A DNA stretch of 64,000 nt from Candidatus Spyradenecus sp. (GCA_045605345.1 JAZUPT010000019.1:64603-128602), one strand, 5' to 3'; shown: positions 3,863 through 43,700, counted from the stretch's first letter. The notes: a model not told the origin generated them from the letters alone. A program made the numbers and translations.

Positions 3863-5125
3863 TTAAAATGCCGCCAATTTGTTGAAGTCCAACGTGGCAA
3901 AGAGGTCTTCAATGGTCTCTGCGCGACGGATTTCCGTAACAGACCCATCTTCGCGCAAGAGCAATTCTGCGGAACGCAGTTTGCCATTGTAGTTGAAGCC
4001 CATGGCGTGTCCGTGAGCGCCAGCGTCGTGGAAGACGAGGAGGTCGCCCGGCACGATTTCAGGAAGCGCACGCTGAATGGCGAACTTATCATTGTTTTCG
4101 CAGAGCGAACCTGTGACATCATAGATGTGGTCTGCGGGAGCATCGGCCTTGCCAACCACGGTAATGTGGTGGTAAGCACCATAGAGTGCCGGACGCATGA
4201 GGTTGGCCATGCACGCATCCATGCCCACATAATCGCGGTAGGTGTGCTTGAGGTGGCGCACTGTGCTGACGAGATAACCGTAAGGCCCCGTGATGCAACG
4301 GCCACATTCCAAGTAAATCTTCAGCTCGGGATGGCCCTTGCCAATGAGACGTTCTTCATAAGCTTTACGAATGCCTTCGCCGACAATCTCCAGATTGACG
4401 CCCTCTTGTTCGGGACGGTAGGGAATGCCGATGCCGCCGCCGAGATTGACGAATTCAAAGGTAATGCCCAATTCGGCGTGAAGCTCTGCAATGAGATCGA
4501 AGAGCAGAATCGCCGTATCAATGAAGTACTGCGGATTCAACTCATTGGAGGCCACCATTGTGTGCAAGCCAAAGCGCTTGACGCCCTTTTCCTTGAGGAG
4601 GCGATAGCCCTCAAAGAGTTGCTCACGTGTGAAGCCATACTTCGCTTCCTCAGGCTTGCCGATGATGGCATTGCCACCTTTGAGCGGGCCGGGATTGTAG
4701 CGGAAGCAGACGAGTTCGGGGAGTTTGCCGCATGCTTTTTCGAGGAATTCGATATGGGAGATGTCGTCAAGATTGACATTCGCGCCCATTTCCACAGCGT
4801 GGACAAATTCTTCGGCGGGGGTGTCATTGGAGGTGAACATAATTGCTTCACCATCCAAGCCGACCTTTTCCGAAAGGAGAAGTTCGGGCAAAGACGAGCA
4901 GTCGGCACCAAAGCCTTCATCCTTCAGTACGCGCATCAGGAAGGGATTAGGGGCAGCTTTGACAGCAAAGAAGTTGCGAAAGCCTTTATTCCAGGCAAAC
5001 GCAGCCTTCATGCGGCGAGCATTTGCACGGATGGCCTTTTCATCATAGAGGTGAAAAGGCGTAGGCCAACGGGTTGCGATGTCGCGCAATTGCGCTTCTG
5101 TGCAAGGCAATGTTTTTTCAGACAT
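3863..5125 (-). CDS. lysA: PLP-dependent fold-III decarboxylase, diaminopimelate decarboxylase-like
   Basis: 420 aa with FHLYDE near the N-terminus, a glycine-rich loop NLGGGIGIPY, and a CENNDKF/HDAGAHG C-terminal region typical of the DAP/ornithine/carboxynorspermidine decarboxylase family. Confidence 0.65.
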   Translation of the reverse strand: MSEKTLPCTEAQLRDIATRWPTPFHLYDEKAIRANARRMKAAFAWNKGFRNFFAVKAAPNPFLMRVLKDEGFGADCSSLPELLLSEKVGLDGEAIMFTSNDTPAEEFVHAVEMGANVNLDDISHIEFLEKACGKLPELVCFRYNPGPLKGGNAIIGKPEEAKYGFTREQLFEGYRLLKEKGVKRFGLHTMVASNELNPQYFIDTAILLFDLIAELHAELGITFEFVNLGGGIGIPYRPEQEGVNLEIVGEGIRKAYEERLIGKGHPELKIYLECGRCITGPYGYLVSTVRHLKHTYRDYVGMDACMANLMRPALYGAYHHITVVGKADAPADHIYDVTGSLCENNDKFAIQRALPEIVPGDLLVFHDAGAHGHAMGFNYNGKLRSAELLLREDGSVTEIRRAETIEDLFATLDFNKLAAF

Positions 5126-15982: not shown

Positions 15983-16575
15983 TGATTAATTACTTTTTGA
16001 AAGATGGCACGATGAAACAAATTCTTTTTCCGATGTTCGTCATTACACTTCTTGGTTGCGTGGGGTGCACGACTCCACTTGCAGAGACTCCTATGAATGA
16101 GGTGGACGCCTATGTCGCCTTCTGTCGCGACTTGGCACTTGATGGCGAGCGGACTCCCGATGCATTACGCAGTCCTATTCATGCGCATGAGTATAAAACG
16201 GACTGTAGCATTGTCTATGCCGATGCCGATTATTTGAGCTATCGAGTTGAAGCTTTTGAATACACGGGCGGCGCACATGGGATGACCACTGTAACCGTGG
16301 GAACCCTTGATCGCAAAACGGGATGCAAACTGACTGTTGCAGAACTCCTTTCACGCACAAACCTTTCTGCGCATCAAGATGCAATTAAAGCCTCAATCAT
16401 CCAACGCCTCGGTGGGGCAGAAAACTTGTTAGTACCCCTCACGCTCACGGATAATTGTTACCTTGCAGAAGACGGTCTCCACTTCGTCTACAATCCCCTT
16501 GAAATCGCTTGTTACGCCGCAGGCCTTATCGAAGTCACCATCCCCTACAAAAAAGAATGTAGGGGATGGCGATAG
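15979..16575 (+). CDS. DUF3298/DUF4163-like lipoprotein (RsiV / PdaC C-terminal-like)
   Basis: Lipobox LLGCVGC; YRVEAFEYTGGAHGMTTVTVGTLD, characteristic of the DUF3298 family. Confidence 0.55.
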   Translation: MMINYFLKDGTMKQILFPMFVITLLGCVGCTTPLAETPMNEVDAYVAFCRDLALDGERTPDALRSPIHAHEYKTDCSIVYADADYLSYRVEAFEYTGGAHGMTTVTVGTLDRKTGCKLTVAELLSRTNLSAHQDAIKASIIQRLGGAENLLVPLTLTDNCYLAEDGLHFVYNPLEIACYAAGLIEVTIPYKKECRGWR

Positions 16576-16640
16576 GAGCGTGTGTAAGTGTTTTTAACCT
16601 TTAGGTAAAAGCGTAAATTCTTTTACTTTTATGCAAATAA

Positions 16641-17696
16641 CTATGTACGCTTTAGAAATTTAAACCTAAAGAGAAGCCAAAGATAGGCAATTTTATGACG
16701 GAAACTTACATCACGAAATGAGATTTTCTTTTCAATAAAGAATTCATAAAGAATGTCTGTAAATGCACGAAGTCGCAAATCGCGTTCTTCACGTGACAAT
16801 GATTTTCCACGTCGAATCATATTGAACGTAATCTTCAGAAACTTAATGATGTACCATTTACGTTGATGAGCCCAAAGACCAATTGGGTCGTTCTTTTCTC
16901 GCTCTTCTGTGTAGAGGTCAAAGAGAAGACGGACCTCGGTATGCTGACAGGCGATTTTCTTAAGTGAGATAGTGTTATGCATCATTGAGTTTTCTTGCCC
17001 ACCATTGTAAAAATACAACACTGCTTGCGAGACAACCCATCGCTCGGCCTTTTGAAGCAAGGCGAAAGGACGCGGCAATGAGGCATCTGCTAAAAAGGGA
17101 TAAGTTCGGGCTAATGCAGTTGTTGAAAATTGAATCCAATTGTCGGTATGGATTTCATGTGCTTGGACGTATTGTTTAGGGGTATTCTGTCGAACGGAAT
17201 CATCAGCAATTATGATTGGAATTGTCTCAAAGTCTTTTGGCAGAGGCTGGGGTGATGGAGACTCCCCATAAAAGGTTTGATATCGGAATGCAATGAATTC
17301 TGCATGATAGTGCTCAAGAGCCCATAGAGAATACTCTAAAAGTTGTGGGTGCAATACGTCATCTTGGTCACATGCATAGAAAAATTTTCCACGAGCTAAA
17401 GAAAGACCATTGGAACGAGCCGCGGCAGGGCCAGTGTTGGGTTGTGTTACAACACGAATTCGAGAGTCTTTCGCAGCACATGCTTCCAATACTGCAAGTG
17501 TTTTTCCATTGTCCGTTGATCCGTCATTTACGCAAATGACTTCAAAGGACTGCTCTGTTTGTGCTTGAATACTCTCAAGCGTTCGTATAATCACCTCGCC
17601 GATATTGTAGACGGGAATAACGATTGAAACTTTTGGAGGAGTTGATTGCATACGAAGCCCTTTCGAGTTGAAATACATAAGACAATTCTCACTCAT
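16641..17696 (-). CDS. Family 2 glycosyltransferase. The likely start is MQSTPP near position 17651
   Basis: KVSIVIPVYNIGEVIIRTLESIQAQT ... VICVNDGSTDN ... CDQDD (GT-A fold with the DxD motif). The gene and both flanks are AT-rich relative to their neighbours. Confidence 0.8.
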   Translation of the reverse strand: MSENCLMYFNSKGLRMQSTPPKVSIVIPVYNIGEVIIRTLESIQAQTEQSFEVICVNDGSTDNGKTLAVLEACAAKDSRIRVVTQPNTGPAAARSNGLSLARGKFFYACDQDDVLHPQLLEYSLWALEHYHAEFIAFRYQTFYGESPSPQPLPKDFETIPIIIADDSVRQNTPKQYVQAHEIHTDNWIQFSTTALARTYPFLADASLPRPFALLQKAERWVVSQAVLYFYNGGQENSMMHNTISLKKIACQHTEVRLLFDLYTEEREKNDPIGLWAHQRKWYIIKFLKITFNMIRRGKSLSREERDLRLRAFTDILYEFFIEKKISFRDVSFRHKIAYLWLLFRFKFLKRT

Positions 17697-18015
17697 CTAT
17701 AGTTTATCTCAGGCGTTACAAAATTGTCAAACAATCTATTTGAATGATATTTTAGATTACGTTGATGGTTAAATTATGTGGAGAAGATACACTGTTTGTA
17801 GGGGATATGAGGGAGGTGTTTCTTCATATTGCGTAATCAGCCGTGAATCTATTCCTTTTGAGAGAGTATTGGTGATAATTTAAAATTATTGGCACTCGGG
17901 GTGTTTTTTAGTGCTTTTTGAGGGGTAAATGGGATTCTTTGCGTACATTCGCTTGCATCGCGTGCGAATTTTAGAGATAATAAGGAGCGTTTTCTATTTG
18001 AAATAAGGAGCGACT

Positions 18016-23448: not shown

Positions 23449-24155
23449 TTAGAGCGTTACAGGTGCGCTCATAAACGTTTGTCGGGTGGCACCCTTCTCC
23501 TGTTGGAAAAGCAGTTGAATTGTGGTGCCAGTGGGGTAATCTGCGCTATTGAGCGAGAAAAGTACCTCTTTGCCAGACTTCTTTTGCAGAATGGGCGTAA
23601 TCGCAGTGCGCTGTTGGTCAACAATGACAAACCACTTCGCCTGTTTCCCCAATTGCTCACAATACAAATGACGCCCATTCACCAGAACAAACGTAGTCTC
23701 CCCAGAAGGCGTTACTTCCACGTCACGCAGTTCAGGAGTTGTAATGGCATCAACCTTTTCAACCGTTACACCCTCTAACGCATGACGCAAGCGTGACCCT
23801 GCAGAGACCGAAACTAAGAGCTGATGTTTGCTACTATCAAATGCTTCGTCTTTGGTTGTGAAAGCACCTTTAATGGTTGGGCGAAAGCGCATAACGGAGC
23901 CAAAATTAACCGAGCGGCCATGGCGAAGATTGTCAATGATGACATCCATCATCTGTTCGGCTATGCCCAAAATTTCATGTTCAGCATACTTTGATCCTTC
24001 GCGAACCATCTGCTGGGCGATGGTTTTTAAGCTTGCCGGGTGGATTTCAGCTCTTGCTGCATAATACTGTTTCCCGCGAACCAAATATGGCAACGGGATT
24101 AATCAATAAGCGATGTTAGCAATCGTATTGCGAACATTTAAAAGACGTGGACTCA
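23449..24155 (-). pseudogene. HU-family DNA-binding protein with a C-terminal DUF4469-like domain, interrupted by an in-frame TGA
   Basis: ATG at 24153-24155 (RBS GGAGG upstream) encodes MSPRLLNVRNTIANIAY, then an in-frame TGA, then the same frame continues LIPLPYLVRGKQYYAARAEIHPASL... to 23449. The ORF track restarts at a TTG codon at 24093. Confidence 0.5.
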
Positions 24156-24277
24156 TAAGTAACCTCCATACGAACGTAGAACAAATACATTTAATAATGT
24201 AACCTTGCGCTCATCATATCACAATCCTGCCACTTTTACTGTTCAGTTTGTTACAAACTCAAATCCAGTTTGTTACA

Positions 24278-24560
24278 TTTCATTTCTTCAATACTTTGTA
24301 CCATATTTGCCGTGCCGTAACTTATTCATTTACAATAACTTATTTTGAATATTTTATGGCAGGCAATTTTAAGTTTAAAATCAGTACAATTTGTACTATT
24401 CATGCAAAATTTAAACAGTACAATTTTTTTGGGGGCCAATTATTTAAAGGGGAAATTTCCTCTCGGGAAGAAATCTTAAACAGTACAATTTTTAGCCGGG
24501 GACTTTTTAGACCTGTTTAGAAAATTCTAGAAAATAGTACGAAGGTCCGAAGAAGTGAAA
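24278..24560. mobile_element. MITE-like non-autonomous element, copy 1 (283 bp) with terminal inverted repeats
   Basis: Near-identical to 31178-31459. Ends are TTTCATTTCTTCAATACTTTGTAC ... GTACGAAGGTCCGAAGAAGTGAAA (about 17 of 24 terminal positions inverted-complementary). Contains AGTACAATTT three times and the palindrome GGAAATTTCC. Confidence 0.6.
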
Positions 24561-24759
24561 AAGGGCGAGACCCTTGAAGAATATGGTACCATATTGATGA
24601 GGAAAATGGTACCCTATTCTTCGGCAATATTAGCCTTTTTCAAACGCAGAAAGGGTTGTTTTCGTTTTCAATATTAGCCTTTTTGATTTTGAAAATGGGT
24701 ACACTTATTTTTTTGATTTTGTGAGGGGGCGTTTCTTTCGTCAAATTAGACTCTTTTGC

Positions 24760-24800
24760 AGAGAGAAAAAGAAACGCCTCCCCGACATCCGGAGAGGCGA
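24760..24800 (-). terminator. Rho-independent terminator of the minus-strand lipoprotein operon
   Basis: Stem CGCCTC ... GAGGCG with loop CCCGACATCCGG, followed on the minus strand by TTTCTTTTTCTCTC. Confidence 0.55.
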
Positions 24801-24823
24801 TGGATCAGTGGTCGTTTATGGGA

Positions 24824-25447
24824 TTACCAGCCGATGGAAGAACCCTTGCCGCCCTGCTTTGCCATATCAACCGACTTCTGGAAGACGGTGCGACGCTGGC
24901 GATTGTTGAGGCGAATTTGGAAAGTATAATTCTTCTCACGCAGGTCTGCATTGGCAGCCGTGAGCAGATTGATGGTACCTTCCATGTAGAAGTCTGCTGC
25001 GTCATCTCTATTCACGGCGACATCATTCATGAAGGCGTCTTCCTTATTGGCAGCAATTGCTCCGGCATCGTTTGCCACGATTTCAACGAGTCCGCTATTG
25101 AGCAGGTCTTCATTGATACGGCCTGCAATCTGAGCCAGGTCAATGGACAAATCTGTTTTATTGATAATGCTGCCGACATTAATCACAGGCAGACGACCAT
25201 TCTTTTTCTCAAAATTAACAATGTGACCATTGTTGAGCATGGCTTGCGTGAGCTGACCTGCAGCATTCTTGAAGTCCTGCAAGTCCACACCCATAGAGGT
25301 GATCGCTTCTGTACCACCTGCAACAATACGACGGGGCTGCTGTGCAACACAGCCCGTCAAAAATACACCAAGTAATGCGCAACCTGCTAAAAATGCAATG
25401 TTTTTCATCTTTTGAGTTCCTTTTTTAATGTGTACGGTTTTTATCAT
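24824..25447 (-). CDS. LpoB-like lipoprotein (penicillin-binding protein activator LpoB/YcfM family)
   Basis: Lipobox LAGCALLGVFLTGC; C-terminal pattern ADFYMEGTINLL ... YTFQIRLNN, resembling LpoB. Confidence 0.55.
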   Translation of the reverse strand: MIKTVHIKKGTQKMKNIAFLAGCALLGVFLTGCVAQQPRRIVAGGTEAITSMGVDLQDFKNAAGQLTQAMLNNGHIVNFEKKNGRLPVINVGSIINKTDLSIDLAQIAGRINEDLLNSGLVEIVANDAGAIAANKEDAFMNDVAVNRDDAADFYMEGTINLLTAANADLREKNYTFQIRLNNRQRRTVFQKSVDMAKQGGKGSSIGW

Positions 25448-25485
25448 CCGATAATTTCTTCAGGGAAACTGCCGCATGAAGAAGA

Positions 25486-25908
25486 TTAGTTATCGGCATT
25501 CAACAATTTAATGCGGAAGTCCCGCGCCTCACGCGAAGGTGCAGTAAAAGAAAGACTCCGGCTTTCACGCGCTTCAAAGACATATTGCTGCCAGCCACCT
25601 CCTGCGGTGTCAATTTTCATCGCAGCAGCATCGTACCACTCCATCTGCGCATTCACCGTCAGGCGATTACGTGTAAAGTTTTCCATTTCGAGCTGCACGC
25701 GAAGTAATCCTGCTGCATTTTCTGCAGTATTAATCCGTACTACGCCAAAATCATCTGCGAAGTTCAAATCGGTATCCACGCGACTGTCACGAATAATATT
25801 CATCGCAGCAGACTTATTTGCATTTTCTACCGTATTGACAGAAACACCTGCGCAGCCCACCATCAGGAACATCCCAATGCAAGCCGCACAAAAAAGAGCT
25901 TGTTTCAT
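25486..25908 (-). CDS. YcfL-like small lipoprotein
   Basis: 140 aa, lipobox MVGCAG, size and context (next to an LpoB-like gene) as in ycfL-lpoB operons. Confidence 0.45.
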   Translation of the reverse strand: MKQALFCAACIGMFLMVGCAGVSVNTVENANKSAAMNIIRDSRVDTDLNFADDFGVVRINTAENAAGLLRVQLEMENFTRNRLTVNAQMEWYDAAAMKIDTAGGGWQQYVFEARESRSLSFTAPSREARDFRIKLLNADN

Positions 25909-25954
25909 ACGTATTCCCTTTCCTTACTGTTGTTGCTGAAATAATAACATAAAA

Positions 25955-27388
25955 TCAACGGATCTTGAATGCCATCACGCAGGCTTTACTATTCGCATGC
26001 ATCGTGCGTACACAGATGACCCACACCTCTCCGGTTTCAGGCAATGTAAGTGTTTGCAAGGTACGCCCGTCCTGCGTAATCGTTACCTGACGATCAGCCG
26101 GCATGTCAATGCGTCCCACACCGATATGCTTCGGCAAAGCATTCCAACTGCGTGTATCTGCCGTAGCTGTGCCATATTGATAAAGTGCAGTCCCAAGCAA
26201 TGCAGCAATCTGCATATAGGTATTACCACTCTGACGTGCAGCGTAATTCGCAGCATACGAAGCGACCGCTTTCGCAGTAGCAGAAGCAATCGCACGTGTC
26301 AAAATGCCAGGATAATCATTATCATATTCCTTGGCAATGACCGCCTCCATGTCGCAAACCAGCTCAGCTACGCCTACTTGACCACCTCCACGAAGGGTGG
26401 CAAAGGGGCCAACATTCTTGTCAACCTTCAACTTCGGCAAGGCGATGCTGACAAAGGAGAAGGTTCCACCAGCATAGATGGGCAGCAGGATTGAGAACTC
26501 TTCACGATAAGGCGCCATCCCATTCTCATGGAAAAGATACACCCCAGCTGGAATTTTTGCACCAGCATTGAGGCGTTCAACATCCTGACGAATAGTCTTA
26601 TTTTCAGGTGCCATTGAAAGCGCACGTGTCATGCGGAACCGCGCCATTTCACGATCTGCATCATCCACACCTGCATAAAGGTGATAAAACGCGTAGAGAT
26701 ACTCCGAGAAAGGATTCACATACAGTTCATACCCGCGTGTATCAGGTAACTCTTTCATGATTTCATCGGTGGCCTCAGCCATCTCTCCGCTCGAGGATGT
26801 CTTGTCAATACTTGCGCTATTTTCGTCTTTTTCAACCGCCTCACGCGTCTTTTCAATACGCTCGGCATTCACTGCGACAATCTCTTTCTGATGATTATCC
26901 AATCGCACCAGAGGTTGACGCGCATCAGCAATTTTACCTGCCTGTAACGCATTCAAAGCCTGGTAGGTATTCACCATCAAAATATCCGCCCCAGAACCAC
27001 GATACGGCAATGTTGCAGGATTGGTCAAAAGTGAAATTCCTTCGCGGCTGATAGAGACCTTTGCCATGTTCTGCCAATAATCATAGATGCGTTCAGCGCG
27101 ATTGAAAAAGGCCTGACTCGCCCTTTCACGCCCTGCTGCACGCGCAGTAGCACCAGCCTCTAAAAGAAGCACAAGCGTATCTCGCCCATGTTCATCTTCA
27201 GCACCATCCTCAGCCATGTCACTGATCAGTTCCACCGCCCTGTCCGTATCGCCAGTGCCAAACACCTGACGATATTCTGCAACGCGCTCTGAATAGCTCG
27301 CGCAGCCCACCATTAAACCCATCCATATCAGCGACAAAGCCACCCCAAAGGTGCGTTTTGTCCGCATCATTGCTTGAACTTTTGTCAT
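25955..27388 (-). CDS. Lipoprotein of 477 aa, the COG3014-like partner commonly found with LpoB-like and YcfL-like genes
   Basis: Lipobox LMVGCAS, helical/TPR-like N-terminal region. Translationally coupled to its neighbours. Confidence 0.4.
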   Translation of the reverse strand: MTKVQAMMRTKRTFGVALSLIWMGLMVGCASYSERVAEYRQVFGTGDTDRAVELISDMAEDGAEDEHGRDTLVLLLEAGATARAAGRERASQAFFNRAERIYDYWQNMAKVSISREGISLLTNPATLPYRGSGADILMVNTYQALNALQAGKIADARQPLVRLDNHQKEIVAVNAERIEKTREAVEKDENSASIDKTSSSGEMAEATDEIMKELPDTRGYELYVNPFSEYLYAFYHLYAGVDDADREMARFRMTRALSMAPENKTIRQDVERLNAGAKIPAGVYLFHENGMAPYREEFSILLPIYAGGTFSFVSIALPKLKVDKNVGPFATLRGGGQVGVAELVCDMEAVIAKEYDNDYPGILTRAIASATAKAVASYAANYAARQSGNTYMQIAALLGTALYQYGTATADTRSWNALPKHIGVGRIDMPADRQVTITQDGRTLQTLTLPETGEVWVICVRTMHANSKACVMAFKIR

Positions 27389-28284
27389 TCTTTCTTCTCC
27401 ATGGGTTTAACCTGCGAACCGACGGATGCACGTGTATCACCGATTAATTCGCCCTGTGCATAGTCAGATTCTACATCCGTAATCTTTACTGTGCCCATAG
27501 GACGCCCCTTAATCTTACGCGTGACACCCGTATCAGGATCGGTTACAGTGCGCGTCTTGCCATAAACTTTACAGACATCACCGACCTTAAAAATGCCTTC
27601 GCCGGCATTAATCGTAACGTAAATCTCGTCCACATCAATAATCTTGGGCGGGAAAGTTGCGGCGATTAAGAATTTCGTACTTGCCTCAGCCATTTCGCGT
27701 GTCAGTTTGGGCAACATTGAATCAAACCGTCCAAAACGACGATTCGAGGTGTTGGAAACATCGGCAATATCCACCTTTTCAAGTTGCTGATTCGACGCAT
27801 CAATAATTTCAGAAGTGCTTGTATCAATCACACGCATCTGAGTAGAGAGTTGATAACGTACCTTCGCACGATGTACACCATTGAAAACAGCTACATCCGT
27901 GACCTGTTGGAAAGCATCAATTGAGACGATTAAAGCATACTCTCCACCAATCATCTCATTAGCCTGAGCACCTTTTTTCGCCACCAACCCTGCTTCATCA
28001 AGAGCCTGTTCACGAAGCAACTCTTCCAAAGCATCCGAACGCTCCAGAACACGATACTTGCGAGAGGAAACAATCTCAGAGATCAGATGTTCGTCCAAAC
28101 TCTCAATCACGCGCCCCAAAAGCTGCGCACGTTCATCATGCGCCACCTCAGCCTTCAGCGAATCATTCGCGGTAACGCGCGCAACATAGAGCGTCTTCTG
28201 CTGCGCCAAAGCAATCACCGGCATCATCACCGCCAGTGCTAACCATTTTAAACTGCCAGATTTCATCGTTAATCCCCCTTTCAA
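27385..28284 (-). CDS. CsgG/HfaB-family lipoprotein (curli-type secretion channel-like)
   Basis: KTLYVARVTANDSL ... ISEIVSSRKYRVLERSDALEELLREQALDEAGL ... GGEYALIVSIDAFQ follows the CsgG family pattern. Its start overlaps the upstream gene's stop. Confidence 0.6.
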   Translation of the reverse strand: MKGGLTMKSGSLKWLALAVMMPVIALAQQKTLYVARVTANDSLKAEVAHDERAQLLGRVIESLDEHLISEIVSSRKYRVLERSDALEELLREQALDEAGLVAKKGAQANEMIGGEYALIVSIDAFQQVTDVAVFNGVHRAKVRYQLSTQMRVIDTSTSEIIDASNQQLEKVDIADVSNTSNRRFGRFDSMLPKLTREMAEASTKFLIAATFPPKIIDVDEIYVTINAGEGIFKVGDVCKVYGKTRTVTDPDTGVTRKIKGRPMGTVKITDVESDYAQGELIGDTRASVGSQVKPMEKKE

Positions 28285-28285
28285 A

Positions 28286-29530
28286 TTACTTCATTAACCA
28301 GTCAATAAACATCGGCGCCTGCCCTCCGACCACATCTGGCAGTTTATCCGCCTTAATCTGCAAACCACTCTGCTCAAGCATCTTGGCATGGCCCAAACGC
28401 TGAGCCATCTCCGCCTGACTCTGTTCGCGTTCAATCGTCAAATCATGCATAAACTGAATCGAATCCTTTACACGGTTGTATTCCTCATCTGTCATCCGCA
28501 TATTCACCGAAAGCGCCAACCCTTCACTCGGCACAACAGACATCGTGACATCATCATACCCCTCACGCGAGAAGCGCACCTTATGTACACCGCGAGAGAG
28601 ACGTAATGTACACCCAGTCGTACCACGCGCCACCCCATCGACCTCTACTGTCGCAGCCACCTCCGTGGGAATACGATCATTCAAAATGGAATTATCCTGT
28701 TTCAACGCCGGCAAGTAAATTGGCTTATTATTCATATCGTAAGCCAAAACCGTAAACGAAACCGGAATGCCACTCTTCTCTAAAGAAGCCTCACGCCACG
28801 CAGGAGCCTTCTCACGAATCTCTTCTGCCATCGCTGCTGCAAGTTCTTCTTCTAAACCATCGGCGTACTCGCCAAATTCCTCATCGGTAAAGGCCGTCTT
28901 ACGCATTGAAATCTGCGCCTGTAACGTACCCCCATCAAAAGCACTGCCCGTGTAAACATCCGCAATGCGATACGATGCAGAAATCTTGTAAATTTCATTT
29001 ACAATCTGTACATCCGAATTATCCGTTGCCTTACCAAAACGACGATCCCGCAATCGACGCACATTTTTTGTAAACCTGTCAAGCGTCACCGTCAGCAGAT
29101 AATCTGCGCCAGCATTCGCTGCCAAATGCATCCGTGATGTATCCCCCTTCAACTTCTCATCCTGCGTCGGTAAAGCCCGCCCCTTCTCATCATATTCCCG
29201 GCGAGACTCCATAGCAAAAACGGCATCATCCATATCGATGACCTCCACATTCGCTCCGGCAATCTGTGCCCCCACCTGAGAAGCCAAAACCTTACAAACC
29301 TTATCAAATTCCTTTTTACCCGTAATATTTTTCACCATCAACGCCACCACATGGGCCCTCGGCTCTGCCGGTTTCTGCGCCTTCACCTCTACATCATACG
29401 CAGCTTGCACCTTCAATTCCGTGCCGTCTTTCAACCGCAAAGAGACCGGATCTGCTGTAGCCGTCACCTTCTCCGCGCACAAAATAGAGGCGGCAACCAT
29501 TCCGTAAAACAAACAAAGCGACCGTTTCAT
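28286..29530 (-). CDS. Secreted protein with a C-terminal PEGA domain
   Basis: C-terminal VEVDGVARGTTGCTLRLSRGVHKVRFSREGYDDVTMSV is a PEGA-type motif; N-terminal signal peptide present. Confidence 0.55.
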   Translation of the reverse strand: MKRSLCLFYGMVAASILCAEKVTATADPVSLRLKDGTELKVQAAYDVEVKAQKPAEPRAHVVALMVKNITGKKEFDKVCKVLASQVGAQIAGANVEVIDMDDAVFAMESRREYDEKGRALPTQDEKLKGDTSRMHLAANAGADYLLTVTLDRFTKNVRRLRDRRFGKATDNSDVQIVNEIYKISASYRIADVYTGSAFDGGTLQAQISMRKTAFTDEEFGEYADGLEEELAAAMAEEIREKAPAWREASLEKSGIPVSFTVLAYDMNNKPIYLPALKQDNSILNDRIPTEVAATVEVDGVARGTTGCTLRLSRGVHKVRFSREGYDDVTMSVVPSEGLALSVNMRMTDEEYNRVKDSIQFMHDLTIEREQSQAEMAQRLGHAKMLEQSGLQIKADKLPDVVGGQAPMFIDWLMK

Positions 29531-29550
29531 CTCCTCTTTCCTCCTTACAA

Positions 29551-30099
29551 TTAAAAAGAACCATAAATGATGGGGAAAAAGCCTGGCGTTGTATTCGTAA
29601 TCACATTCACTACGCCAATCTGAATCCCACGTGCACCCTCTGCATAATTAATCACACCAATCTGCAAACCTTTAAGGTAATACGCACAGTTAATCACGCC
29701 AATCTGCAAACCACGCACACGCGAAACACTGTTCAGTGCACCCACCTGCAAACCTGCAAAATCCGCTTCCACAGTATTGAGTAACCCCACATCCAAGCCC
29801 TTCATGTTCACACACCGCCCATAAATCGGTGAAATGCGAATCCCACGCACATCCCAATCACCCCAGGGCAACTGAATCGGCGCAAGAATCCCAAGCGACA
29901 ATGGGGTCGTATTGCCATCCATCAAACTGAAATCTGCGCCACTTCCTCCTGAAGGTAAAGGTTTCGGCTGATCAGAAGGTTGACGCGTCGCAGTCCAATG
30001 ATACGTTGCCCCTTCCTGCCCGCTCCCTTCAGCAAAAAGTGTCCCACCCGAAAAACAAATCGTACTCACCAAAACAAAGCATAAAACCCATTTAAACAT
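29551..30099 (-). CDS. Secreted repeat protein with GlQiGxxN repeats
   Basis: Signal peptide; repeats GLQVGALN, GLQIGVIN, GLQIGVIN, GIQIGVVN. Confidence 0.5.
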   Translation of the reverse strand: MFKWVLCFVLVSTICFSGGTLFAEGSGQEGATYHWTATRQPSDQPKPLPSGGSGADFSLMDGNTTPLSLGILAPIQLPWGDWDVRGIRISPIYGRCVNMKGLDVGLLNTVEADFAGLQVGALNSVSRVRGLQIGVINCAYYLKGLQIGVINYAEGARGIQIGVVNVITNTTPGFFPIIYGSF

Positions 30100-30221
30100 C
30101 TTTCACCTCAACCTTCATCACTCCACCAATGTACACCATGTACATTACCCTAAAGAGCGATTCTGCAAAAAGAGTACATCATTTTCAGACCACTGTCAAT
30201 ACAAATCCACTCCGCACCCAC

Positions 30222-30496
30222 CATCCCGACATTATCGTACCCACCCGGCCACTGCGCCGGGTGGAGCCTTTCGCTTTAAGTTCACTTAGAACAAGGTTTA
30301 TCGTGAACGCCCTGACACTGTGACTGGAGTCCCCTCTCACACATCACCCCACGATTATCGTACCCACTCGGCCACTGCGCTGGGTGGAATCTTTCGGCTT
30401 TAAATTCACTGGGAACTGGCGGACCTTATCTGCTTCCGCTCTCTGCTAGCGAGTCTCAATCGCCTTTCGGCTTTAAGTTCACTTGGATCTGTACCA
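30222..30496. repeat. Irregular repeat array of units ATTATCGTACCCACYCGGCCACTGCGCYGGGTGGA (an 8-bp stem hairpin) plus CTTTCGGCTTTAARTTCACT
   Basis: The hairpin-containing unit occurs twice (30236-30290 and 30354-30410). The CTTTCGGCTTTAAGTTCACT motif occurs three times (about 30264, 30394 and 30464). Confidence 0.6.
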
Positions 30497-30879
30497 TAAT
30501 TAAGCTATTGATTCCAAGGGGTTTATTTTGGTGATTTGAAGGGAAACAGGGGTTTTTGAGCATTTTCGTCTCCCTTCAGGAAGATTCTCTATGAGTACTC
30601 CTCAGTTGTCAGTGAGCGCTACGCGCAGGACTGCATGTTTTTTAACACAAGAACGCAAGGTCTTGTTCCGTCGCGCAACTCGGCGCGATGAAAAACCTTG
30701 CTTTGCAAGTTTTTTCCCGAGTATGCCGACGGAACGCTGATATCTTACGGAACGCTGATATCTTAAAGATGGTCTTCACAACAAAAGAGTGGTGCACCAC
30801 GCCTTTCCTTACCCCTCTCTTCTTACTCATCACTCATCCCTTCTCTCTTCTCCCTTCTCTCCCCTCGCCACTCCCCGTG

Positions 30880-31100
30880 AGCACCTGTAAGCACATCCGC
30901 AGGATGTGCAGCGTGCAGGACTCAGTCCTGCCGCGGGGTGTGGGGCTGCGCAAGCCCCACATCTCTCCTCTAATCTACTAATCCACAGCGAGCACCCGCT
31001 CGCGTAATCCACAGCACCGTCAGGTGCGGATATATGCGCCCGATCCCGTAGGGCTGGGAAATCCACAGGGCCGACAGGCCCCTGCGGCGCAGCCGCTCAG
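30880..31100. repeat. Array of roughly eight short GC-rich hairpins, three of them preceded by (T/A)AATCCACAG
   Basis: Hairpins at about 30891-30909 (GCACATCC/GGATGTGC), 30915-30931 (GCAGGAC/GTCCTGC), 30940-30960 (GTGGGGCT/AGCCCCAC), 30989-31001 (CGAGC/GCTCG), 31013-31026 (GCACC/GGTGC), 31066-31079 (GGGCC/GGCCC) and 31084-31096 (GCGGC/GCCGC). AATCCACAG occurs at 30980, 31005 and 31058. A CT-rich tract sits at 30841-30875. Confidence 0.6.
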
Positions 31101-31177
31101 AAAAATAGCCTTTTTGAAAAAGAAAAAGGGTTGTTTTGAAGAAGCGTTAGGGAAGCCTTCATTTTCAATAAGGGCGA

Positions 31178-31459
31178 TTTCATTTCTTCAATACTTTGTA
31201 CTATATTTGCCGTGCCGTAACTTATTCATTTACAATAACTTATTTTGAATATTTTAGGGTAGGCAATTTTAAGCTTAAAATCAGTACAATTTGTACTATT
31301 CATGCAAAATTTAAACAGTACAATTTTTTGGGGGCCAATTATTTAAAGAGGAAATTTCCTCTCGGGAAGAAATCTTAAACAGTACAATTTTTAGCCGGGG
31401 ACTTTTTAGACTTGTTTAGAAAATTCTAGAAAATAGTACGAAGGTCCGAAGAAGTGAAA
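31178..31459. mobile_element. MITE-like element, copy 2 (282 bp)
   Basis: Near-identical direct copy of 24278-24560. It is flanked on the right by TGTTACAAACTCAAATTCAGTTT, matching the left flank of copy 1. Confidence 0.6.
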
Positions 31460-32051
31460 TGTTACAAACTCAAATTCAGTTTCTAAGAAACTTAGAGTCA
31501 ATTTCGCCTCTTTTTGAGTTTTGGCTCAATGAAACCTCCTCCTAAAGTTTGCAGAATGGAGGAAATGTTTTGGCATATGCGGTGGAAAATAATCGCGCAC
31601 AGTTGAGGGGCTGATTGACCATTTTTATACCTTATATGATGGAACCGAAATTGCGATTTCCTCGCAATGGGGACGCGCGTGGGGGAATGGGAATCTGCCT
31701 CAATTCCTTGCACGAGCGCATGAGTTAGGCTATGTTTTTGAAGAAGTACCGCCTGCTTCAATGGGCGGTGTTGAATAAATCGTAGAGCGATTAGTTTGTT
31801 TCTGGGGACGCGTGGGGGCGAGGCTTCCACGCGTTTTATTTACGCAGTACTGGAGTCGTAATAAAACAGTGGTTATGCTCTATTGTGATTTTAAAGCGTA
31901 TAACGGCGCCGCGATGCACTATAAATAAGTGCCGTGGATGCCGTTGGATGTGTTATCTCCGTGCTCCCGTTAGAGGGGGAGGTCGAAATCGGAGGTGTCA
32001 ATTAGTGTTAAACCTTGAGGTAGCACTAATGGCCCCTTGGATGAAACAGTC

Positions 32052-33021: not shown

Positions 33022-33735
33022 ATGAGTTGTCCCTACGCTTGCTCGAGCGAAGTCGAGCACATGACAATGGTCGCTAAAGGCGCCAAGCATGGCCCCGCAC
33101 CTATCCCAGAAGAAGGTAAGTGGGTCAAGGTTTATGAAACCAAGGATATCTCCGGCCTCACCCATGGTGTGGGTTGGTGCGCACCCCAGCAGGGCGCTTG
33201 CAAGCTCACGCTTAACGTCAAGGACGGCGTGATTCAGGAAGCTCTCGTCGAAACCATCGGTTGCTCGGGTATGACCCACTCTGCCGCTATGGCTGCAGAA
33301 GTGCTCCCTGGTAAGACCATTCAGGAAGCGTTGAACACCGATCTCGTGTGTGACGCTATCAACACCGCAATGCGCGAACTCTACCTCCAGATCGTCTACG
33401 GTCGTACGCAGAGCGCATTCTCTGAAGGCGGTCTCCCCATCGGCGCAGGTCTCGAAGACCTCGGCAAGGGCCTCCGTTCTCAGGTTGGTACCATGTACTC
33501 CACCGCTCAGAAGGGTGTTCGTTACCTCGAAATGGCTGAAGGCTATGTCCGCAAGATTTACCTCGACAAGAACGATGAAGTCTGCGGTTATGAATTCGTC
33601 CACATGGGCAAGTTCATGGAAGCCGTCAAGAAGGGCCAGGACGCTAACGAAGCGCTCGCTGCCTGCACCGGCACTTATGGTCGCGTGACCGAAGCTGACG
33701 GCGCTGTGAAGTCCATTGACCCCCGTCACGAATAA
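33022..33735 (+). CDS. NifU/IscU-like Fe-S scaffold N-terminal-domain protein, the usual partner of the GGGtGRT protein
   Basis: GCSGMTHSAAMAAEVLPGKTIQEALN resembles the IscU/NifU N-terminal cysteine-ligand segment. Strongly biased codon usage. Confidence 0.5.
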   Translation: MSCPYACSSEVEHMTMVAKGAKHGPAPIPEEGKWVKVYETKDISGLTHGVGWCAPQQGACKLTLNVKDGVIQEALVETIGCSGMTHSAAMAAEVLPGKTIQEALNTDLVCDAINTAMRELYLQIVYGRTQSAFSEGGLPIGAGLEDLGKGLRSQVGTMYSTAQKGVRYLEMAEGYVRKIYLDKNDEVCGYEFVHMGKFMEAVKKGQDANEALAACTGTYGRVTEADGAVKSIDPRHE

Positions 33736-33748
33736 GGAGGATACTACA

Positions 33749-34747
33749 ATGGCTTTGTTTGAATCTTACGAACGTCGTATCAACCAGATTATGCCCGTCC
33801 TCGAAAAGTATGGCATCAAGTCCATCGAGGAATGCCGCGAAATCTGCAAGGCTAAGGGTTTCGATCCTTACGAAATCGCTGAAAACATCCAGAAGATCTG
33901 CTTTGAAAACGCAAAGTGGGCTTATGTGGTTGGCGCCGCTATCGCAATCAAGAAGGGCTGCACCAAGGCCGCTGATGCTGCTGAAGCAATCGGCGAAGGC
34001 CTCCAGGCTTTCTGTATCCCCGGCTCCGTTGCTGACGACCGCAAGGTCGGTCTCGGCCATGGTAACCTCGGCGCAATGCTCCTCCGCGAAGAAACCAAGT
34101 GCTTCTGCTTCCTCGCAGGTCACGAATCCTTCGCTGCAGCTGAAGGCGCTATCGGTATCGCAATGAAGGCCAACAAGGTCCGTAAGGAACCCCTCAAGGT
34201 CTGCTTGAACGGTCTCGGTAAGGATGCTGCTTACATCATCTCTCGTATCAACGGCTTCACCTACGTTGAAACCGAATTCGACTACTTCACCGGCAAGCTC
34301 AACATCATCAAGGAAATTCCTTTCTCTGATGGTCCTCGCTCCAAGGTGCGTTGCTACGGTTCTGACGACGTTCGCGAAGGCGTGGCAGTGATGTGGCAGG
34401 AAGGTGTGGACGTCTCCATCACGGGTAACTCCACCAACCCCACCCGCTTCCAGCACCCCGTCGCAGGTACCTACAAGAAGGAATGCATCCTCGCTGGTAA
34501 GAAGTACTTCTCCGTCGCTTCCGGCGGTGGTACCGGCCGTACGCTTCACCCCGATAACATGGCCGCTGGTCCTGCTTCTTACGGCATGACCGACACCATG
34601 GGCCGCATGCACTCCGATGCGCAGTTCGCTGGTTCTTCCTCCGTTCCTGCACACGTCGAAATGATGGGCCTCATCGGTGCTGGCAACAACCCCATGGTCG
34701 GCATGACTGTGGCTGTTGCTGTGGCTATCGAAGAAGCCAGCAAGTAA
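33749..34747 (+). CDS. GGGtGRT-family protein
   Basis: Contains the eponymous motif SGGGTGRTLHP; RBS AAGGAGGA lies 8 nt upstream of ATG 33749; strongly biased codon usage. Confidence 0.75.
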   Translation: MALFESYERRINQIMPVLEKYGIKSIEECREICKAKGFDPYEIAENIQKICFENAKWAYVVGAAIAIKKGCTKAADAAEAIGEGLQAFCIPGSVADDRKVGLGHGNLGAMLLREETKCFCFLAGHESFAAAEGAIGIAMKANKVRKEPLKVCLNGLGKDAAYIISRINGFTYVETEFDYFTGKLNIIKEIPFSDGPRSKVRCYGSDDVREGVAVMWQEGVDVSITGNSTNPTRFQHPVAGTYKKECILAGKKYFSVASGGGTGRTLHPDNMAAGPASYGMTDTMGRMHSDAQFAGSSSVPAHVEMMGLIGAGNNPMVGMTVAVAVAIEEASK

Positions 34748-34994: not shown

Positions 34995-35145
34995 GCAGTT
35001 GATGGGGATGGCGCGGGGATAGAGCAGTTTCGGTCTGCGCTTGAGCCGACACTTAGAAGGTGGGGATGGCGCGGGGATAGAGCAGTGTCGGTCTGCGATT
35101 GAGCCGAATATTAGAAGATGGAGATGGCGCGGAGGATGTCGTTTA
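34995..35145. repeat. Tandem ~60-bp repeat (about 2.3 copies) overlapping the 3' end of dus
   Basis: TGGGGATGGCGCGGGGATAGAGCAGTTTCGGTCTGCGCTTGAGCCGACACTTAGAAGG repeated. The last partial copy encodes the Dus C-terminus (...RAISIF). Confidence 0.7.
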
Positions 35146-43609: not shown

Positions 43610-43700
43610 CGATTTCGTCTATTTTGCTCACCAATTTCGCCTATATTGCTCACCAACTTCGCTTATTTTGCAACTCAATTTCACTTATATTGACCCGGAA
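43610..43700. promoter_or_regulatory. About 3.5 tandem 23-bp repeats, plus three TTGTTGATAACT motifs further downstream (43729-43955)
   Basis: TTCGTCTATTTTGCTCACCAA / TTCGCCTATATTGCTCACCAA / CTTCGCTTATTTTGCAACTCAA / TTTCACTTATATTGACC, in the AT-rich 900-bp region upstream of the giant gene. Confidence 0.4.

Follow-up and report, generated by a model that had tools for sequence, protein, structure and literature searches.

In a 64,000-nucleotide (nt) stretch of DNA from Candidatus Spyradenecus sp. (GCA_045605345.1 JAZUPT010000019.1:64603-128602), referred to here as the window, two direct copies of a short non-coding element, which we call E, bracket a lipoprotein operon. E is a prokaryotic MITE (miniature inverted-repeat transposable element), that is, a non-autonomous transposable element with terminal inverted repeats, of gut Kiritimatiellae. 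Comparison of the sequence with that of related strains indicates that the two copies and the operon between them are one 7182-bp insertion (E1-operon-E2) upstream of an HU-like gene. The best explanation, and one that we consider probable, is that a circle carrying the operon and a single E was fused with the chromosome at the sequence TGTTACA by replicative transposition. The element itself has the following features, given in window coordinates.

24278-24560, plus strand: E1, a 283-bp non-coding MITE-like element, 30.7% G+C (50.2% for the window), with ends conserved in about 31 copies elsewhere
31178-31459, plus strand: E2, the second E copy (282 bp), in direct orientation to E1 and 97.5% identical to it
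24278-24301 in E1 and 31178-31201 in E2, plus strand: left terminal inverted repeat, TTTCATTTCTTCAATACTTTGTAC, which pairs with the right end in the predicted fold (helices 1 and 2)
24537-24560 in E1 and 31436-31459 in E2, plus strand: right terminal inverted repeat, GTACGAAGGTCCGAAGAAGTGAAA
E end sequence, one of a pair of inverted partners: TTTCAYTTCTTCAATACTTTGTAC
24382-24397, plus strand: central inverted pair of a GTAC-centred motif, CAGTACAATTTGTACT (AGTACA-ATT-TGTACT), in columns invariant in 31 copies
24416-24426 and 24481-24491, plus strand: further copies of the GTAC-centred motif in E1, also in columns invariant in 31 copies
24295-24301 and 24536-24543, plus strand: motif variants TTTGTAC and GTACGAA within the E1 terminal repeats, likewise in columns invariant in 31 copies

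The identity of E1 and E2 was measured over 284 aligned columns, and the single indel is 1 nt long and lies in a T run. The terminal inverted repeats are 24 nt long and imperfect, being complementary at 18 of 24 positions and at 11 of the outermost 12. Within each copy the motif TTAAACAGTACAATTT occurs twice, against 0.03 occurrences expected in the window, and GGAAATTTCC is also present. E2 carries the same set of GTAC motifs as E1, and each copy has six of them, two inside the terminal repeats. These findings bear out a first-pass annotation of the window, which had described two near-identical direct copies with imperfect inverted ends and TGTTACA at both outer ends, as well as a repeated internal motif, a palindromic pair (quoted as the reverse complement of CAGTACAATTTGTACT) and an extra motif. 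That annotation had also stated that the element has no open reading frame (ORF). E1 is in fact crossed by a 90-amino-acid (aa) ORF with a TTG start, the only one. Because its frame is broken by variation in the length of the T run among copies, the statement was right in substance.

E belongs to a dispersed family with sharp ends. A collection of species-representative genomes was scanned once with an internal 20-mer of E, which gave 25 loci (L001-L025). All except L001 carry E, and these 24 are all from metagenome bins of Kiritimatiellae, mostly Candidatus Spyradenecus; L001, from Lachnoclostridium, is apparently a chance match to the 20-mer. In BLAST and nhmmer searches about 31 full-length copies with 85-93% identity were found in four other genomes or species known from metagenome bins, so that the family, for which a genome-wide count had been proposed in the first-pass annotation, is not limited to the two copies within the 64-kb window. 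The first and last bases are the same in all of these copies and the flanks are unrelated. Derivatives of 125-252 bp with internal deletions also occur and retain both ends. Thirty of 31 copies are intergenic. At one locus (L025) E splits a gene, and removal of E together with a 6-bp repeat, CCATGC, restores a 512-aa ORF. The mean identity of E copies is 88.0% within a genome and 88.7% between genomes, and alignment columns 147-165 and 178-190 consist of discrete alternative blocks that occur in mosaic combinations across species. This indicates that the family is old or has been exchanged between species, with recombination among its subfamilies. At one locus (L020, positions 3961-4501 and 1012-1412) E and a diverged relative of about 75% identity form dimers, head to tail, with just 6-8 nt between the two; this spacing recalls the reactive junctions between ends in insertion sequences of the copy-out/paste-in type. 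Two contigs of one bin (L014 and L018; JAFYWN01) have an identical E copy and identical flanks over several kb and are probably an assembly duplicate.

The site at which the block stands is an array of short palindromic units.

24271-24277, plus strand: left copy of the outer target-site duplication, TGTTACA, abutting the left end of E1
31460-31466, plus strand: right copy of the outer target-site duplication, TGTTACA, abutting the right end of E2
24243-24277, plus strand: left part of a 22-nt hairpin-unit array (CAGTT-TGTTACA-AACTC...), the insertion target
31460-31497, plus strand: right part of the same array, with one TGTTACA unit and then a TCTAAGA unit

The array unit of 22 nt is a short palindrome with arms of the type CAGTT/AACTG around a 7-nt core, and a 23-mer, TGTTACAAACTCAAATYCAGTTT (repeat family D16), is found at 24249-24271, left of E1, and again at 31460-31482, right of E2. 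Uninterrupted arrays of TGTTACAAACTCAAnnnCAGTT units, without E, were found at two loci (L027, L029) in a metagenome scan with the flanking 22-mer, and uninterrupted arrays are also present in two relatives (L040, L041). The corresponding loci of relatives were identified via the GGGtGRT protein and via homologues of the HU-like protein. In a relative that is about 98% identical (L038) the whole E1-operon-E2 block is present. In three others (L040, L041 and L042, with left flanks 95-96% and right flanks 90-92% identical) the block is absent and the left flank of E1 is contiguous with the right flank of E2. The overlap of the two flank alignments in L041 and L042 is exactly 7 nt, TGTTACA. The array in L041 reads cagtt-TGTTACA-aactcaaattcagtt-TGTTACA-aacttgaactcagtt-TCTAAGA, with two TGTTACA units against three in the window. 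Among the samples, ERZ27316317 has the block, whereas ERZ27297717 and ERZ28655949 have the empty site. The comparison of filled and empty sites, together with the overlap, indicates that the 7182-bp block at 24278-31459 was inserted into an array unit with a 7-bp duplication. A further relative, 95% identical in the left flank (L028), also lacks E at the left junction, and its contig ends 9 nt later. The empty sites that the first-pass annotation had named as a check are thus found in relatives, and the target is a short tandem repeat, as it had supposed. That the 22-nt arrays are footprints left by E was considered and rejected, as arrays exist without E and their spacers are unlike the ends of E.

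Several other observations were made on the surroundings of the site and on arrays of this type. The gene with the HU-DNA_bdg domain (23449-24156, minus strand) has an in-frame TGA at 24103-24105. It corresponds to codon 18 in the 235-aa gene call of L038 and L040, and L040 has CGA there. The HU-like gene beside the insertion site is therefore either truncated or starts at a downstream TTG at 24093. Just inside the cargo, at 24575-24618, there are 23-nt tandem units with a palindromic ATATGGTACCATAT core. This array is similar to units with the ATATGGTACCATAT core at the edge of a defence island in L036 (11579-11720), and the E copy of L007 is inserted in such a unit. Another 22-nt tandem array, without E (ATTTCGCCTATTTTGCTCACCA, 3.7 copies, 43612-43692), borders a low-GC block (43-54 kb) that encodes a 2086-aa protein with TSP3 repeats. 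Several families of arrays of 22-23-nt palindromic units seem to mark island borders in these genomes.

The inner junctions of the block, like the outer ones, carry a duplication, which had not been recorded in the first-pass annotation.

24561-24568, plus strand: repeat AAGGGCGA of the inner junction, right of E1, forming the left arm and the loop of the hairpin AAGGGCGAGACCCTT (24561-24575)
31170-31177, plus strand: inner junction repeat AAGGGCGA, left of E2

Joining the inner junctions restores the hairpin TTCAAT-AAGGG-CGAGA-CCCTT-GAA, found nowhere else in all sequence examined. With A for TGTTACA and B for the shared 8-mer, the order is A-E-B ... B-E-A with direct copies of E. This is the signature of a cointegrate, in which a circle with one E is joined to the chromosome, either by replicative transposition or by recombination with a resident E. 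Such an order and orientation cannot result from unequal crossing-over, from intramolecular transposition or, barring an 8-nt coincidence, from two independent insertions. E1 and E2 are also sister copies. Pairs of E copies within a genome average 88.0% identity, and just 0.6% of them reach the 97.5% of E1 and E2. When the four sequences, E1 and E2 of the window and of L038, are aligned, each difference is private to one of them, which indicates that E1 and E2 were identical when the two strains split. Together with the 97.5% identity, this favours a replicative route for this block. The timing is consistent, with a divergence of about 2.5% between E1 and E2, about 1.5% between the strains that share the block and 4-10% for the strains with an empty site. 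In the first-pass annotation the arrangement had been read as a composite-transposon-like insertion with target duplication. The insertion with a 7-bp duplication agrees with the empty sites, but a composite built from two independent insertions does not agree with the matching inner AAGGGCGA and the ancestral identity of the copies.

We therefore propose the following mechanism. The GTAC-centred motifs are most likely binding sites of a transposase, which would be encoded elsewhere and would make 7-bp staggered cuts, often in the loops of the palindromic units that form 22-nt arrays. The most likely donor is a circular molecule with the lipoprotein operon and a single E that had its own duplication, AAGGGCGA, on either side. 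By transposition of the replicative, cointegrate-forming kind into TGTTACA, E would then have fused the circle with the chromosome, and this step would have duplicated both E and the 7-bp target.

Similar structures occur at other loci. In another species (L044/L045) the same operon, with DNA 69-71% identical, stands elsewhere on the chromosome, beside rfb genes. Here too direct E copies lie on both sides of it, with the same relative orientation, and the inner junctions share another 7-mer, ACGAAGA. Further direct pairs have matching outer sequences, which are CAGTGCGG around a methyltransferase gene (L015), CAATAGG around 188 bp (L010) and CAATACGG around a HEAT-repeat gene (L020); the last locus also holds dimers of E and its diverged relative and is weaker evidence. 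Direct E pairs outnumber inverted pairs by 6 to 1. Homologous recombination between E copies probably also builds such direct-pair structures. The association with the operon is not universal, as in more distant species (L043, L056-L059) the operon homologues are ordinary chromosomal genes that are not bracketed by E. The 226-aa ORFs that adjoin E in the window and in L045 are not homologous.

A number of results weigh against replicative fusion by a transposase acting on E. The other direct pairs are 87-91% identical, no closer than random copies, which fits recombination better than replicative duplication. Most solo E copies are without a flanking duplication: a perfect 7-mer is found at four of 31, in each case CAATAGG, and this sequence flanks E so often that cross-pairing the left and right flanks of different copies gives a 7/7 match in 3.7%. 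The scarcity of duplications at solo copies fits an old family whose flanks have been shuffled by recombination, and it means that the length of the duplication rests mainly on the comparison of filled and empty sites, the copy within a gene and the junction pairs. Strains differ in the number of TGTTACA units (two in L041, four in L040), and this slightly weakens the case for reading the 7 bp as a true duplication. At the left end of E the outermost 6 nt show less conservation than the interior blocks, an unusual pattern for the substrate of a transposase. The cargo lacks genes for replication or mobility that could account for a circular donor. Finally, neither the window nor the 8-kb flanks of E copies yielded a transposase with matching ends, and no longer element with the ends of E was found among the loci. 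Other searches were also negative. In an all-against-all BLASTP comparison of the ORFs of L002-L025 no protein family recurs between independent loci next to E, and plasmid and phage collections gave no blastn match to E. A scan of viral contigs with the left end of E gave chance matches of 18-21 nt only. A tblastx comparison was dominated by E matches and otherwise showed just an absence of synteny. A 205-aa resolvase gene at a rearranged locus of relatives that are 88% identical was considered as a link and rejected, as there is no E and no cluster of GTAC motifs there.

Recombination is also the basis of an alternative that we regard as possible, if somewhat unlikely, in which the block arose in two steps and without transposition of the replicative kind. 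A solo E would have been inserted at TGTTACA, and operon DNA with E, either a circle or a linear E-operon-E segment from another strain, would then have been brought in by homologous recombination of the Campbell type. This yields exactly the same A-E-B...B-E-A pattern. The direct pairs of L015, L010, L019 and L020, just 87-91% identical, are what would be expected of chimeras of unrelated copies; many solo copies have mismatched flanks, suggesting frequent recombination of E by E, and the relatives are heavily rearranged. In contrast, the ancestral E1 and E2 were the same, whereas random E copies differ by about 12%, and no allele with a solo E is present among the five related strains sampled (L028, L038, L040-L042). 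A classic composite transposon, in which two independent E insertions around the operon were followed by cutting at the outer ends and pasting of the block into TGTTACA, would account for the outer 7-bp duplication and the empty site, and the inner flanks of L015 do differ as such a model expects. We nevertheless find it very unlikely, as the matches at the inner junctions are 8 nt long here and 7 nt long in L044. The chance of one 8-nt match is about 1.5e-5 unless identical hairpin cores were hit twice, and the B hairpin is unique in the sequence examined. A local tandem duplication of the 283-bp segment, without any mobility, almost certainly did not occur. The window by itself, with two copies only, would allow it, and the first-pass annotation had held that two copies and no empty site would favour it over transposition. 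It is refuted by the approximately 31 copies elsewhere with the same ends, by the empty sites and by the junction duplications.

The remaining alternatives concern the nature of E. It could be primarily a functional module of the host, either the gene of a structured RNA or a cassette for protein binding or regulation, with spread and pairing being secondary. The interior blocks are indeed invariant in 31 copies, and species with 69-71% identity in the operon DNA have 89-91% identity in E. The fold of E has a z-score of -2.2 and its end-to-end pairing co-varies (U-G, U-A, C-G and G-C at column 6/279). However, there is no Rfam match at the gathering score in the whole window, E included, and compensatory changes are seen in three of 64 predicted pairs, a count reached by 95 of 500 shuffles, with copies too similar to give power. 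Support for a conserved RNA fold is thus weak. Relative to the genes beside them, E copies have no consistent orientation (18 vs 12 and 13 vs 11), one copy disrupts a gene and there are deletion derivatives without the interior blocks. We consider a primary host function highly improbable, and the suggestion of the first-pass annotation that the copies act as mobile regulatory modules also finds no support in these orientation counts. A scan for consensus promoters gave four matches against 1.7 expected and was not informative. A more speculative idea, which we think unlikely, is that E goes beyond a decaying MITE and is maintained in gut Kiritimatiellae as the docking module of a system for cassette exchange. 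A recombinase or transposase whose gene lies elsewhere in the genome would bind the six GTAC-centred sites, fuse gene circles with one E to any hairpin unit or E of the chromosome, and free them again. If true, such a system would account for the better conservation of E than of coding DNA between species and for the predominance of direct pairs. It would also explain why the same operon is bracketed by E at different sites in two species, each with its own inner duplication.

The cargo between the copies (24561-31177, 6617 bp) is a minus-strand operon of six genes and a non-coding stretch upstream of it; the gene calls of L038 are among the evidence for the genes.

24824-30099, minus strand: cargo operon, six genes
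24824-25408/25447, minus strand: LpoB-like gene, lipobox LTGC
25486-25908, minus strand: DUF1425 gene
25955-27388, minus strand: gene for a 477-aa protein without a Pfam match
27385-28284, minus strand: CsgG-like gene
28286-29530, minus strand: PEGA-domain gene
29551-30099, minus strand: gene for a 182-aa protein
30100-31169: non-coding cargo stretch of 1.07 kb upstream of the operon, with 123-bp direct repeats (30215, 30338) and a tandem repeat of two 18-bp units (30729-30765)

In the non-coding stretch (30100-31169) there is no Rfam match and no ORF longer than 97 aa. The window, which includes argS, ftsK, tilS and a rarA-like gene, is chromosomal, and no transfer RNA, transfer-messenger RNA, Rfam family, transposase, recombinase or integrase was found in it. 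For six proteins of the window there is no identical product on record, possibly because of start-codon choice or strain differences. Elsewhere in the window, a low-GC insert (0.41-0.44) at 16571-17889 carries a gene for a family-2 glycosyltransferase (16641-17696, minus strand); the 95% relative L028 lacks this insert and has 209 bp in its place. A pair of NifU-like and GGGtGRT genes (33022-34747) is found in three different chromosomal contexts among relatives (L030-L039), and the 205-aa resolvase gene mentioned above lies beside this pair in the 88% relatives. The GGGtGRT protein is 100% identical even where the DNA identity is 88%. Between the GGGtGRT gene and a dihydrouridine synthase gene there is a 58-bp tandem repeat (35001-35137, 2.3 copies, 88% matches).

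Prokaryotic MITEs are defined as elements shorter than 500 bp, without coding capacity, with terminal inverted repeats of about 4-30 bp and dispersed copies that share the same boundaries (PMC10969869). Further criteria are a target-site duplication, filled and empty sites, AT-richness, a mainly intergenic location and an autonomous insertion sequence with the same ends (PMC10969869). E agrees with this description in its length, lack of coding capacity, inverted repeats, dispersed copies, filled and empty sites with a duplication, AT-richness and intergenic location. Like Correia, ERIC, RUP and Chunjie (PMC10969869), it is shorter than 500 bp, has inverted repeats, is AT-rich and mostly intergenic, and has variants with internal deletions, and in older copies its direct repeats are often lost. 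Unlike classical MITEs, E is a new sequence family, in Kiritimatiellota, its interior is better conserved than its left tip and it has no known parent insertion sequence. The closest described case to the E block is a 439-bp MITE of Acinetobacter, of which two identical copies without an ORF, in the same direction, bracket class 1 integrons, with the terminal 25 nt matching at 18 positions (PMC3934969). That block has a 5-bp direct repeat, and its authors proposed either transposition or homologous recombination (PMC3934969). The two elements are alike in being AT-rich, in lacking an ORF, in having 18 matched end positions, in forming a direct pair around a cargo with a repeat flanking the block, in the transposition or homologous recombination proposed for their movement and in having no matching insertion sequence known. 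They differ in the length of the duplication, 7 bp in E and 5 bp in Acinetobacter, and in the cargo, which is a chromosomal lipoprotein operon of housekeeping type in the former and resistance genes on plasmids in the latter. Their sequences and phylum are also unrelated, and unlike the Acinetobacter case the E block has a duplication at the inner junctions and a hairpin-repeat array as target.

The E block also resembles the pseudo-compound transposons, translocatable units and cointegrates of IS26 (IS6 family; PMC4471558) in its direct copies around a cargo, its structure of a cointegrate or one-element circle, the target duplication that flanks the block and the many copies that lack a duplication of their own after recombination. 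Membership in the IS6/IS26 family was rejected: the cointegrate-type structure is present (outer TGTTACA, inner AAGGGCGA, sister copies), but E encodes no transposase. IS26 has its own (DDE) transposase, duplications of 8 bp and ends of the GGCACTG type, and, unlike it, E is 283 bp long and non-coding, with unrelated ends and a 7-bp duplication. Several insertion sequences, for example IS1397, target REP/BIME palindromes (PMC1525189). The insertion of E is likewise into short palindromic repeat units that are intergenic and stand in arrays. Elements of the IS1397 type are, however, autonomous insertion sequences with other duplication lengths, and the arrays here have 22-nt units with arms of 5-7 bp and a variable 7-nt core. 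Two further classes were considered and rejected. Tn3-derived inverted-repeat miniature elements (TIMEs) have Tn3-type ends of about 38 bp that start with GGGG and a 5-bp duplication, whereas the ends of E start with TTTCA and its duplication is 7 bp. In integron attC sites the crossover is at a conserved core inside the site, with no target duplication and an associated integrase, whereas E has discrete ends with 7-bp duplications and there is no integrase in the window.

E is therefore a new family of a known kind, a MITE-bounded translocatable unit, in an understudied phylum. It is the first mobile-element family to be described for Kiritimatiellota, a phylum known almost only from metagenome bins. 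Breaks in the assembly of these bins are explained by its sharp conserved ends, which might also be used as markers of strains. The interest of the E block lies mainly in its clean mechanistic signature and in the repeated capture of the same operon, and the doubled junction signature makes the mechanism directly testable. The block appears to be a natural example in which a 6.6-kb operon for envelope lipoproteins has been taken from one chromosomal site to another, within a species, by a 283-bp non-coding element.

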